Origin: Escherichia coli | GTDB lineage: Bacteria; Pseudomonadota; Gammaproteobacteria; Enterobacterales; Enterobacteriaceae | DNA length: 64,000 nt | Reading direction: 5' to 3' (one strand) | Assembly: GCF_048403405.1 (NCBI RefSeq) | Contig: NZ_CP183129.1 | In this document: in pieces, positions 1-5,663 of the stretch | Numbering within the stretch: position 1 is the stretch's first letter | Layout: each line of letters begins with the position of its first letter | Made by a program: the position numbers and the translations under genes | The notes under the pieces: generated by a model | What the model saw: the letters and a program-made list of their open reading frames with translations, nothing else | What the model was told of the DNA's origin: nothing | The model's database searches: none

Positions 1-527
1 AAGAAGGCTTCCGCGTCGTGCCACCAGCGGCAGTGCGTCAGGGCGCGTTCATTGCCCGTAACACCGTGCTGATGCCGTCTTACGTCAACATCGGCGCATA
101 TGTTGATGAAGGCACGATGGTTGATACCTGGGCGACCGTCGGTTCCTGTGCGCAGATTGGTAAAAACGTCCACCTTTCCGGTGGCGTGGGTATCGGCGGC
201 GTGCTGGAGCCGCTGCAGGCTAACCCGACCATTATTGAAGATAACTGCTTCATCGGCGCGCGCTCTGAAGTGGTTGAAGGGGTAATTGTCGAAGAAGGTT
301 CCGTCATCTCTATGGGCGTATACATTGGTCAGAGCACCCGTATTTACGACCGTGAAACCGGCGAAATCCACTACGGTCGCGTTCCGGCAGGATCTGTGGT
401 TGTTTCAGGCAATCTGCCGTCGAAAGATGGCAAATACAGTCTTTACTGTGCGGTTATCGTTAAGAAAGTTGACGCGAAAACTCGCGGCAAAGTCGGCATT
501 AACGAACTGCTGCGTACCATCGACTAA
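1..527 (+). CDS. dapD: Tetrahydrodipicolinate N-succinyltransferase, C-terminal part (5-prime end lies outside the window)
   Basis: ORF 18..527 is in frame with window position 3; translation ends ...[10 protein letters not shown] and shows hexapeptide-repeat character typical of DapD. Confidence 0.9.
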
Positions 528-539
528 AAGTATGCACAC

Positions 540-570
540 GGGCAGCACGACGCTGCCCGATTGCTTTCTG
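540..570 (+). terminator. Hairpin GGGCAGC-ACGAC-GCTGCCC just after the dapD stop, followed by U-rich tract; probable dapD terminator
   Basis: 7-bp perfect stem read from sequence directly downstream of stop codon at 525..527. Confidence 0.4.
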
Positions 571-839
571 GTTCAGAATAATTCGTCCTACTCATTCTTC
601 TTCCCCTTTTTTAAATACTTTTTCATCTTGTTTCGGACTGTCATGTAATTCGCAAAACAAAGATAAATGTGCTAATCCATCCCATGGAATATCGCCACAA
701 TAAAGCAGGTAATTTTTTGATTTTTACGCCATGATAGAAGTCTGGAAGAAAAAGGCTTTCTGCGATCACAGTCGAGCCGGGCGGGCCAGGCCAAATGCTA
801 AAATAAGCACAATTTACTGACTCATTTTGAGGTAACGCT

Positions 840-1226
840 ATGTACGACAATCTGAAAAGTCTGGGTATTACCAATCCTGAAGAAATTGATCGTTACAGCC
901 TCCGGCAGGAAGCCAACAACGATATTCTGAAAATCTATTTCCAGAAAGACAAAGGCGAGTTTTTCGCCAAGAGCGTGAAGTTTAAATATCCGCGTCAGCG
1001 TAAAACGGTCGTCGCCGATGGTGTGGGTCAGGGTTATAAAGAAGTGCAGGAGATTAGCCCTAATCTTCGCTATATCATTGATGAGTTAGATCAAATCTGC
1101 CAGCGTGACCGCAGCGAAGTTGATCTTAAGCGTAAGATCCTCGACGACTTACGTCATCTGGAGTCAGTAGTAACCAATAAGATCAGCGAGATTGAAGCCG
1201 ATCTGGAAAAACTGACGCGTAAATAA
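840..1226 (+). CDS. yaeH: UPF0325 family protein YaeH
   Basis: 128-aa [23 protein letters not shown]... recognised as YaeH; ATG start with upstream GAGG. Confidence 0.85.
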
Positions 1227-2591: not shown

Positions 2592-4016
2592 TTACTGCAT
2601 TAACAGGTAGATGGTGCTGTCGCCGCGCTGAATGTTCAGTGCCAGCACAGATGGTTTGCTGTCGAGAACTTTACGCAGTTCAGCGATGTTTTTCACTGCC
2701 TGCTGGTTCGCGCCAATAATCACATCACCTTTTTTCAGGCCGATCTGCGCAGCCGGAGTGCCCGTTTTCACGTTGTTCACTACCACGCCCTGATCTTTGC
2801 CTTTGTTGCTCATCTCAGCGCCTTCAATGCCGTTGAAGATGGAGCTGGAATCAACCTGATTCTGGCTGCTCTGCTGCAGTTCCAGGTTCACGTTAACCTG
2901 CTTACCGTCGCGCAGTAAGCCCAGGGTCAGTTTGCTGCCCACCGGCATAGTACCCACCTGAGCACGCAGGGCGGCAAAGCTGCTGATCGGCTTACCGTTC
3001 AGTGAGGTGATCACATCACCCGCTTTAATGCCCGCTTTTGCAGCGGAGGAATTAGGCAGAACCTGGCTTACGAAAGCACCGCGCTGGGCGTCAACTTTCA
3101 TCGCTTTCGCCAGTTCAGAGTTCAGCTCAGTCCCCATAATACCCAGCTCACCGCGTTTCACCTGGCCGTATTCCACCATCTGCGAGGTCAGGTTTTTCAC
3201 CATGTTACTCGGGATAGCAAAACCGATACCGATGTTGCCGCCGTCCGGTGCGAGGATCGCGGTGTTGATACCGATCAGTTCGCCGTTCAGGTTAACCAGC
3301 GCACCACCGGAGTTACCACGGTTGATCGCTGCATCGGTCTGGATGAAGTTTTCGTAGTTTTCAGCATTCAGGCCGCTACGCCCCAGCGCAGAGACAATCC
3401 CGGAAGTTACCGTCTCGCCCAGACCAAACGGGTTACCAATCGCTACGGTGTAATCACCCACGCGCAGTGCATCAGAATCCGCCATCTTAATTGCGGTCAG
3501 ATTTTTCGGGTTCTGGATCTGGATCAGCGCGATATCAGAGCGCGGATCTTTGCCAACCATCTTCGCGTCGAACTTACGACCATCGCTCAGCTGGACTTTA
3601 ATCACCGTCGCGTTATCAACAACGTGGTTGTTGGTGACAACATAGCCTTTATCGGCATCAATGATGACGCCGGAACCCAGCGCCATGAATTTCTGTTGCT
3701 GGCCGCCGCCATTACCGCCCTGGCCCCCCTGGCAGAACGGAGAGCTCTGGAACGGAGAACCTTCCTGGCAGAACGGAGAATCATCACCGAAGAACTGCTG
3801 GAAATTACGCGGCATACGCGGCGTATTAACGGTTGTGCTACCTTCTACGTTAATGCTGACCACTGAAGGCATCACCTTTTCGAGCATCGGTGCAAGGCTT
3901 GGCATCTGCTGGGCTGTCGTTGCTGAAGAAGTCTCAGCCGCCGTTGCAGAGAGCGGAGATAACGCCAAACCTAAACTCAGAGCCAGTGCACTCAGTGCTA
4001 ATGTGGTTTTTTTCAT
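2592..4016 (-). CDS. degP: Periplasmic serine endoprotease DegP (HtrA)
   Basis: 474-aa ORF with signal peptide, GNSGG serine-protease motif and two PDZ-like C-terminal regions; recognised as DegP. Confidence 0.95.
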   Translation of the reverse strand: MKKTTLALSALALSLGLALSPLSATAAETSSATTAQQMPSLAPMLEKVMPSVVSINVEGSTTVNTPRMPRNFQQFFGDDSPFCQEGSPFQSSPFCQGGQGGNGGGQQQKFMALGSGVIIDADKGYVVTNNHVVDNATVIKVQLSDGRKFDAKMVGKDPRSDIALIQIQNPKNLTAIKMADSDALRVGDYTVAIGNPFGLGETVTSGIVSALGRSGLNAENYENFIQTDAAINRGNSGGALVNLNGELIGINTAILAPDGGNIGIGFAIPSNMVKNLTSQMVEYGQVKRGELGIMGTELNSELAKAMKVDAQRGAFVSQVLPNSSAAKAGIKAGDVITSLNGKPISSFAALRAQVGTMPVGSKLTLGLLRDGKQVNVNLELQQSSQNQVDSSSIFNGIEGAEMSNKGKDQGVVVNNVKTGTPAAQIGLKKGDVIIGANQQAVKNIAELRKVLDSKPSVLALNIQRGDSTIYLLMQ

Positions 4017-4145: not shown

Positions 4146-5663
4146 TTATTGTTCTACGGCCATCAGACGTCGGTATTCATCCCAGGCATAGAGGTCGGTC
4201 ATACCGCTGATATAATCCTGCAGCAGGCGGCAACGGTAATAATATTCCCATAGCGGAAACTCAGGAGAATCTGACGGTAATTTACTGACAGCCTCGACAT
4301 AGGCCAGCCGATGGCGCGTCGAGAGTTTGTTGAATAAGCGCGATTCAATAGGGAAACGTTTCACCCGTTCTTTTTCTACCAGTTCAGTAAAGTCTGATAA
4401 CGACAGGCTTAATAAAGGGCGATAAATCTCTAATAATCCGCTAATGACCCGATAGCCCTGCAATTCAAGCTGCTCGACATCTGGATGGCTAAACACATGT
4501 TTTACAGCGACATTTTTATATAACTTTAGAAGATCGCTGCATTCGCTGGCATCTTCCAATAATGCATGATTAAACGTTCCGGCGAAAATCGCAGGCAGAT
4601 TATCAATAAATCGTTGTGCCGCGTAGGGTACCAGTTTATTTAGGGTGTTTACCCGTAAATACATAAAAAACTGATCTTCCGTACTGCGGCTTAAACTATT
4701 TGAGCGTGATTTTTCCCAGGCATTTTCAACCACCAGCGAAAAGAGCGAACCTTTCTCATGCTGGCCCCACGCTTCGTGCAAATGATGATAAAGCTGCTCA
4801 ACGGTAAATATTCTTTTCTCTACCGCATCTTCAAGGTCTGCCACACAATAGGAGATGTCGTCGGCAGCTTCCATAATCCACGTTAATGGAAAACGACTGT
4901 AAAGCGCCAAATTAAGTTCTTTACGCAACCGGGCAATATAGGCTTCTTCAGAAAGATAATAACCCGGCTTTTTCATTAAATAGTGATGTGTCTCAGGCGT
5001 TTCGCCACGCCACCACGCCGGACGAGTATATTTTAAAATACCGCCAACCTGTGCCCAGGTGAGATTCATCCGCATCAATGTATGCACCAGGCGAATGCCT
5101 TGTGCATTCCCCTCAAAATGACATAAGTCCTGACGAATCTTGCGCCGCAGCTCGTTAAGCGGTTCTTCCCCGTCCCGTAAACGTAGTGCCGCCACGCTGC
5201 AGCGATCGTCAGTCAGAGGCTGGCTTTCGGCATCTTCCGGGTGCAAACGTTGGCGAAACCAGTCATTTATCGCTGCTTCGCCAAAATGACCAAACGGCGG
5301 ATTGCCGATATCGTGCATCAGGCATGACATCTCAACAATGCTTTCAAAGGGGCCGGTCAGTTCATCCAGGCCGTATGCTTCCAGCAATTTAAGCTCTTTC
5401 AGACGGCTTAAAATTTCTTTGGCGATGTAGCGCCCCACCTGCTGGACTTCCATTGAGTGGGTAAGACGCGTGCGCACGGCGGCATTGCGCTCCAGTGGAA
5501 AAACCTGGGTCTTTTGTTGCAGACGACGAATTGCCGGAGAGTTGATGATACGCCCGCGATCGCTCTCGAAGATTCGCAGGATCTCATGTTCGGTTTTAAC
5601 GCCCTGTGGTGAACGGTAACGACGATGCCAGTTTATTTTTTTTCGGAAATCAATCTGTGCCAT
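4146..5663 (-). CDS. dgt: dGTP triphosphohydrolase
   Basis: 505-aa [24 protein letters not shown]... with HD-domain motifs; recognised as Dgt. Confidence 0.9.

Follow-up and report, generated by a model that had tools for sequence, protein, structure and literature searches.

A yaeI-negative dapD-yaeH spacer of Escherichia coli is very probably an old internal-deletion scar of a yaeI-orf236 cassette

In Escherichia coli K-12, the metallophosphoesterase gene yaeI is situated between dapD and yaeH. We show herein that the corresponding spacer of a 64,000-nucleotide stretch of E. coli DNA (hereafter the window) contains no yaeI, and that this arrangement is the majority haplotype of the species rather than a peculiarity of one strain. 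The spacer is very probably an old scar, left by internal deletion in a ~1.7-kb yaeI-orf236 cassette and now carried as a common yaeI-negative haplotype. Such a cassette would have consisted of the dapD terminator, yaeI, orf236 (236 aa) and a 118-bp yaeH upstream region, and it may have replaced a spacer of ~110 bp, typical of the Enterobacteriaceae, in an ancestor of the genus Escherichia and, from time to time, in other genera. Homologous recombination within the conserved genes on either side probably brought this replacement about. Three states, presumably derived from it, exist side by side today: yaeI together with orf236 (rare), yaeI only (K-12; 38%) and neither gene (the window; 61.5%). 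In the window, both genes appear to have been lost, such that the terminator, a segment of 93 bp, ~65 bp from the 3' end of orf236 and the yaeH upstream region are left. We infer the order of these events, as well as recombination as the means of spread; among the conceivable routes of spread, homologous recombination in the flanking genes would be the most economical.

The window covers the 4-min region of E. coli in an orientation reversed relative to that of K-12. The reading frame of dapD closes with TAA at 525-527 and yaeH opens with ATG at 840, after which cdaR, degP, dgt and mtn follow (Table 1). K-12 DapD matched the window at 100% across residues 101-274 (tblastn), and YaeH scored 244 bits against NCBIfam NF010213, for which the cutoff is 150. 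A first-pass annotation of this DNA had put the gap between the two genes at about 310 bp, in close agreement with the measured 312 bp (528-839), and had also described a hairpin after dapD. The latter lies at 539-559 and reads CGGGCAGC-ACGAC-GCTGCCCG, with eight pairs, seven of which are G-C, followed by ATTGCTTTCT. While the stem is the same across all Escherichia types, the T-tract that follows it changes from TTTTTTT in the K-12 type to TTGCTTTCT in the window. An open reading frame on the minus strand, at 641-874, had been dismissed as spurious, and rightly so, since it is unannotated in a RefSeq genome that is 100% identical here; it extends across the orf236 remnant and the 5' end of yaeH. 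It is not, however, the only reading frame in the gap, as had been stated, because a second one of 40 aa occurs at 672-794 on the minus strand, together with several of 21-29 aa.

Table 1. Features of the dapD-yaeH region (window coordinates) and position of orf236 in five retrieved loci (locus coordinates)
Feature	Position	Strand	Basis
dapD 3' part, residues 101-274 (tetrahydrodipicolinate N-succinyltransferase)	1-527	+	ORF 18-527; RefSeq annotation of identical genome CFSAN061763
Cassette left end, including the dapD terminator-like hairpin 539-559	528-562	+	Common to yaeI-bearing genomes
Short-haplotype-specific 93 bp, no source matched	563-655		AT- and pyrimidine-rich
orf236-family 3'-end pseudogene remnant	656-720	+	blastn, local alignment, tblastn
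orf236-yaeH intergenic region, corresponding to the yaeH upstream/promoter region	721-839	+	K-12 identity; near-invariant in Escherichia haplotypes
yaeH, DUF3461 family protein, 128 aa	840-1226	+	ORF; RefSeq annotation; NCBIfam NF010213
Chance ORF of 77 aa, not a gene; begins with TTG and runs antisense across the start of yaeH	641-874	-	ORF list; unannotated in RefSeq
orf236, locus L014 (MOD1-EC7003)	3172-3882		
orf236, locus L083	3001-3711		
orf236, locus L090	4001-4708		
orf236, locus L091	4001-4735		
orf236, locus L092	4001-4738		

In the RefSeq annotation of K-12 (NZ_CP032667), a 'phosphodiesterase YaeI' of 813 bp (270 codons) separates dapD from yaeH, and the three genes share one strand; the gene order and the size of about 270 codons that the first-pass annotation had given for K-12 are therefore correct. 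The K-12 protein scored 531 bits against NF008460 and is a metallophosphoesterase whose signal motif, RRxFLQ, is of the Tat type; its resemblance to LpxG was below threshold. No reading frame for a metallophosphoesterase of ~270 codons occurs between dapD and yaeH in the window, and a tblastn search with K-12 YaeI found nothing that resembles YaeI, whether in the spacer or in the remainder of the 64 kb (best chance match, E = 1.1). Thus, relative to K-12, yaeI is indeed missing between the two genes. When the K-12 spacer, which is 1027 bp long, was compared with the window by blastn, the first 35 bp past dapD were identical to 528-562 (100%), and the last 150 bp ahead of yaeH matched 690-839 at 98.7%. 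Between these flanks, 842 bp of K-12, composed of yaeI with 18 bp upstream and 11 bp downstream, correspond to 127 bp of the window (563-689). K-12 yaeI (b0164; NF008460/PRK11340; PF00149) hence occupies exactly the same site within common flanks, whereas the window is without the gene and holds in its place 127 bp that are unrelated to K-12, save for ~30 bp of additional orf236 remnant. K-12 does have yaeI here and its spacer is not identical to that of the window, so that neither of the findings which would have refuted the first-pass annotation was made; the window differs from K-12 by a replacement rather than by a clean deletion. The possibility that the 127-bp segment is a decayed yaeI was rejected, since blastn with a word size of 7 and Smith-Waterman alignments against K-12, GF43 and MOD1 yielded only scores within the range of shuffled sequences.

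The short arrangement is widespread. Taking as short type every genome in which at least 80% of window positions 400-960 was matched in one place, 3338 of the 5426 complete genomes of E. coli (61.5%) proved to have a contiguous short spacer, the best matches being 100% identical; in the remaining genomes, the same stretch was split in two, as it is in K-12. The 127-bp segment itself (563-689) was present in exactly 3338 of the 5426, in one copy each and solely at dapD-yaeH, and K-12 yaeI was present in 2084 genomes (38%), nearly always once, on the chromosome and at dapD-yaeH. Genomes with the short segment and genomes with yaeI together account for 5422 of the 5424 that have the locus. Because the two states are complementary, short-type genomes hold no yaeI elsewhere. 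Identity of the 127-bp segment ranged from 93 to 100% across the 3338 genomes, with just 331 of them at 99% or above; K-12-like alleles of yaeI (at least 99% identical) occurred in 1440 genomes. Short-type examples include O157:H7 (493/89), ABU 83972 and NC101, with spacers of 297-314 bp, and CFSAN061763 matches the first 2455 bp of the window at 100% identity. The yaeI-less dapD-yaeH arrangement is the majority haplotype of E. coli and no strain peculiarity. Another route of loss was seen in strain 1506 (NZ_CP059288.1), where an IS1-family element lies in yaeI, which is annotated in two pieces.

A presence/absence polymorphism of yaeI is already known: Leimbach et al. (2017, PMC5422975) placed the gene among the accessory orthologous groups for which enrichment in phylogroup A was significant, in agreement with its presence in 38% of the genomes here and with the K-12-like alleles in 1440 of them. 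The window likewise has the same gene order and spacer length as the yaeI-negative arrangement in RefSeq (CFSAN061763 and others), of which it represents one allele with no substantive difference. That earlier report (PMC5422975) covers neither how the empty allele is built nor the third gene and its remnant, and these details come from the present analysis. What is added is the anatomy of the scar, the third gene and the independence of the short type from the K-12 type, none of which would surprise a specialist.

The third gene was recognized in Escherichia sp. MOD1-EC7003, where an extra open reading frame of 236 codons (orf236) lies between yaeI and yaeH. An intact dapD-yaeI-orf236-yaeH order was found in E. 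coli GF43, Escherichia sp. MOD1-EC7003, E. albertii CP117570 and Pseudocitrobacter cyperus, and a homologue of orf236 (orf245) without yaeI was found in Enterobacter sp. kpr-6. The limits of the cassette can be read from Pseudocitrobacter: between the empty site of P. faecalis and the three-gene site of P. cyperus, homology stops at the dapD stop codon and restarts ~9 bp before the yaeH ATG. These limits imply that the whole spacer, including the terminator and the 118-bp yaeH upstream region, was borne by the cassette.

The product of orf236 (~236 aa) belongs to an uncharacterised family, with only 19 sequence relatives among 5.8 billion proteins, and it matched nothing in Pfam, NCBIfam or PADLOC. 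Its AlphaFold model is confident (pLDDT 89.8; pTM 0.89) and found no fold match in the PDB, but in AFDB it has more than 140 structural relatives, all uncharacterised, from Bacteroidota, Leptospira, Acinetobacter, Firmicutes and Myxococcota, among others. The invariant residues of the family include TCSxC-N and FH..HCH, a pattern that might point to metal binding.

A piece of this gene is present in the window. The right 184 bp of the spacer are homologous to the 3' end of orf236 plus the spacer downstream of it; positions 132-312 of the spacer, for example, match 4648-4824 of the E. albertii three-gene locus (L090) at 89% by blastn, and homology of the DNA to the E. albertii and Enterobacter alleles reaches back to ~656-659. 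Window positions 670-717 translate to C, a stop and then SIPWNIATIKQVIF, ending with TGA at 718-720, where the intact gene ends in CEPVPWGIARIKQVIF and a stop; an additional in-frame TAA lies at 664-666. The C-terminal 16 residues were recovered with E ~4e-6 when the 19 family proteins were used in tblastn. The C-terminal motif, EPVPW..K.K, is kept even in family members that are only 34-38% identical, and since it is conserved in such distant homologues, the coding form came first, and what the window carries is the remnant of a pseudogene. K-12, for its part, keeps just the last ~30 bp of orf236, with homology from 690 onward, so that the remnant of the window, starting at about 656-670, is ~30 bp longer. 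It follows that the short type cannot derive from the K-12 type. Both types would descend from a three-gene ancestor or from alleles akin to it. A 28-bp deletion in strain BS-04 takes away part of the remnant, and the scar is still decaying.

Parts of the locus appear to have moved between lineages. Both a yaeI-only and a yaeI+orf235 arrangement occur in E. albertii, with yaeI 98.5% identical between the two strains. As an additional observation, the yaeI-only junction of E. albertii, along with the last yaeI codons (GTG TAG, rather than ATT TAA), resembles E. coli K-12 (L004, about 3816-3896, compared with L090, 3960-4740). Either a short tract of interspecies recombination or a deletion that recurred at the same place could explain this likeness. 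The junction shared by E. coli and E. albertii suggests that recombination carried parts of the locus from one lineage to another, which blurs any simple reading of states as ancestral or derived. The alleles of yaeI within E. coli are also unusually divergent: K-12 and GF43 are only 80.7% identical at the nucleotide level (L001 1677-2489 versus L083 2174-2986), and further allele classes stand at ~94% (BL21), 93% (O145:H28) and 87% (APEC E956), while the dapD and yaeH flanks differ by just 1-4% where the yaeI alleles diverge. This pattern points to imported alleles or to relaxed constraint.

To place the short type among relatives, the yaeH locus was taken from 80 species representatives, the retained set being one from which E. 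fergusonii, Shigella and Salmonella are absent. More than 70 non-Escherichia species of Enterobacteriaceae have a dapD-yaeH gap of 110-126 bp without yaeI, among them species of Citrobacter, Klebsiella, Enterobacter, Raoultella, Kluyvera, Cedecea, Kosakonia, Atlantibacter, Lelliottia, Pseudocitrobacter and other genera. This ~110-bp spacer is unrelated to that of the window and has a terminator hairpin of its own, AAAGCGGGGG..CCCCGCTTTTTTT; a weak MAFFT alignment near TTCGTTAATTATTC, with ~8 of 15 positions matching, was rejected as homology. In Escherichia, yaeI at dapD-yaeH was also found in E. albertii, E. whittamii, 'E. coli' SCPM-O-B-8794 and Escherichia sp. MOD1-EC7003. Escherichia sp. 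E1V33, on the other hand, has the same short spacer of 312 bp, which is 94.5% identical to that of the window. The flanks of E1V33 are 93.3% (dapD) and 94.8% (yaeH) identical to those of the window, close to the divergence of the spacer, and on this basis the short type appears to be old. Other inserts occur at the same place in Enterobacter: E. wuhouensis (L055 1414-4000) has an open reading frame of 762 aa on the opposite strand, which by eye resembles a molybdopterin oxidoreductase, and Enterobacter sp. BIGb0383 (L063 3355-4000) has one of 57 aa with a lipoprotein-like signal (ending LSTLTGC). The dapD-yaeH spacer appears to be a site of recurrent gene gain and loss in the Enterobacteriaceae.

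Whether the short spacer is a deletion scar or an ancestral state had been raised by the first-pass annotation as something to be checked against the pangenome, and the comparison with E. coli genomes and outgroups favours the scar of a yaeI-orf236 cassette. Relatives have the intact cassette at this position, the window keeps both of its ends, which differ from a true empty site, and a coding fragment with a disrupted reading frame is left. It could instead be argued that the 312-bp spacer is the ancestral state of Escherichia, that yaeI, with or without orf236, was inserted later and that nothing was ever deleted in the lineage of the window. The short type is, after all, the majority in E. 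coli and recurs in E1V33, yaeI is missing from almost all other Enterobacteriaceae, and the divergence among the E. coli yaeI alleles (80.7-100% at the nucleotide level) is as expected of repeated import. This reading nonetheless seems unlikely, because the window contains a stop-interrupted 3' fragment of orf236, and an insertion cannot leave a piece of its own coding sequence in an uninserted allele. A second and independent argument is that the window carries the terminator and the yaeH upstream region of the cassette type, the terminator differing from those of the empty sites in other genera, which marks the site as a scar and not as one that was never occupied. We see practically no chance that yaeI was removed by a recent, strain-specific deletion or by an assembly artefact in the genome of the window. 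The difference from K-12 is all that would prompt such a view, against which the spacer is identical (100% over 561 bp) in independent complete genomes, the same arrangement recurs in 3338 genomes of many sources and serotypes (O157:H7, ABU 83972 and NC101 included), and short-type spacers have diverged among themselves by up to ~7%, with indels.

The one feature that does not fit a scar is the 93-bp segment at 563-655, which is unaccounted for by the parent cassette. It matched nothing above shuffled controls in yaeI and five orf236 alleles, and nothing in the ~90 retrieved loci; nor were donor copies detected elsewhere in E. coli genomes, in which the sequence, where present, occupies one place, always dapD-yaeH. 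Since these 93 bp are unmatched, one clean deletion does not account for the spacer, whose formation calls for at least two events or for an additional donor sequence. That the segment might be an older part of the orf236 remnant was considered but is not supported, as local DNA alignments with the five alleles scored at or below the means of dinucleotide shuffles. A translated 'FGL(S/T)xN' weakly resembles the family motif RFGLTLNQ (best E = 0.1 by tblastn in a 211-bp database), and a 9-mer, TAATTCGCA, is common to the segment and the allele of Enterobacter sp. kpr-6.

Within the segment, a C/T tract at ~596-612 (TTCTTCTTCCCCTTTTTT) differs in length between short-type strains; in BS-04, it is followed directly by an expansion of 13 bp, made up of pyrimidines. 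The 39-bp core at 616-654, on the contrary, shows a single change among seven short-type sequences, including those of E1V33 and the rearranged BS-04. An ATG-initiated reading frame of 23 codons (524-595, minus strand) runs antisense through the dapD terminator hairpin, with a Shine-Dalgarno-like GGGGAAGAAGA ahead of the ATG. E1V33 retains this frame along with the ATG, and the purine tract ahead of it, AAGGAGGAAGA, contains a better AGGAGG; in BS-04, the start region of the frame is rearranged. This small reading frame is probably a product of chance.

One might suppose, nonetheless, that the 93 bp are functional, whether as a site of regulation, as a small RNA or by encoding the 23-codon frame, and that they replaced yaeI-orf236 and were kept by selection. 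The near-constancy of the core, even in a different species, and the conservation of the small frame with its ATG in E1V33 speak in favour of this view, yet seven sequences are too few to tell conservation from chance, the small frame is rearranged in BS-04, and the changes between the window and E1V33 are mostly non-synonymous. No Rfam 15 family reached threshold: the nearest, sroE, scored 21 bits against a gathering cutoff of 51 (E = 0.063), and did so on the terminator hairpin. In folding tests, the plus strand showed no excess of RNA structure (z = -0.65), while the minus strand reached no more than z = -2.3, with the terminator hairpin included in the fold, and a promoter scan was without match. 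A search of the literature on an element between dapD and yaeH likewise turned up nothing relevant. We regard a selected function of the segment as very unlikely. A broader proposal, namely a long-lived polymorphism of several states under balancing selection for an envelope or phage trait, together with a functional 93-bp element, is also improbable, if slightly less so. Each of the three states is present in at least two Escherichia species, the yaeI alleles of E. coli are up to 19% apart, and an INSeq screen (PMC7414163) showed an enrichment of transposon mutants in yaeI once the bacteria had been challenged with T7, which is the sole hint of a selected trait and, in the literature searched, the sole hint of a function for yaeI. 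However, recombination between lineages without selection accounts for the same facts of the polymorphism.

With regard to the deletion that a scar of the cassette entails, the left breakpoint falls inside the T-tract of the terminator and is accompanied by neither microhomology nor direct repeats, so the mechanism of deletion is not visible. The footprint of a mobile element or island was also considered and rejected, as positions 480-900 contain no direct repeats and no terminal inverted repeats, and the neighbours are dapD, yaeH and cdaR rather than an integrase or tRNA gene; apart from the terminator hairpin and two weak A/T-rich pairs, 480-900 is free of inverted repeats. The spacer resembles the scars of deletional decay in enterobacteria in having a stop-interrupted 3' fragment, conserved neighbours and signs of further decay (BS-04). 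It differs from a simple decay scar in its 93 bp of unrelated sequence, unlike the outcome of a one-step deletion.

The region upstream of yaeH hardly varies. Positions 721-839 are 94-99% identical to their counterparts in other Escherichia species, 690-839 are near-invariant across Escherichia haplotypes, and the equivalent region of Enterobacter sp. kpr-6 is 74% identical to 721-839. By SELEX, Shimada et al. (2014, PMC3946193) located a site for RpoD holoenzyme, directing transcription of yaeH, between yaeI and yaeH of K-12, and given the 150 bp that the window has in common with K-12 there, the earlier placement of the yaeH promoter region in this spacer holds. A simple consensus scan of the spacer gave no sigma-70 match. 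The label 'yaeH promoter region' is reasonable, and the loss of yaeI has left this region intact. Termination of dapD and expression of yaeH would presumably be unaltered as well.

Beyond yaeH, the convergent yaeH-cdaR spacer (1227-1279) is also dimorphic. In the window and ABU 83972, it is 53 bp long with a hairpin, GGCCGGGT..ACCCGGC, whereas its counterpart in K-12, O157:H7 and Escherichia sp. E1V33 is 88 bp long, is unrelated in sequence and has the hairpin CCCCTC..GAGGGG. This dimorphism is independent of the yaeI state, as O157:H7 is without yaeI yet has the 88-bp form.

The present analysis provides a precise anatomy of the empty allele, very probably a scar that arose separately from the K-12 type and in which the promoter region of yaeH persists. 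The biological weight of the finding is small, yaeI being a dispensable accessory gene that is absent from most E. coli. The gene order of K-12 is thus not the norm of the species at this locus, which is of practical concern to annotators and in genome comparisons, and the 'missing' yaeI is the majority haplotype rather than a lesion.
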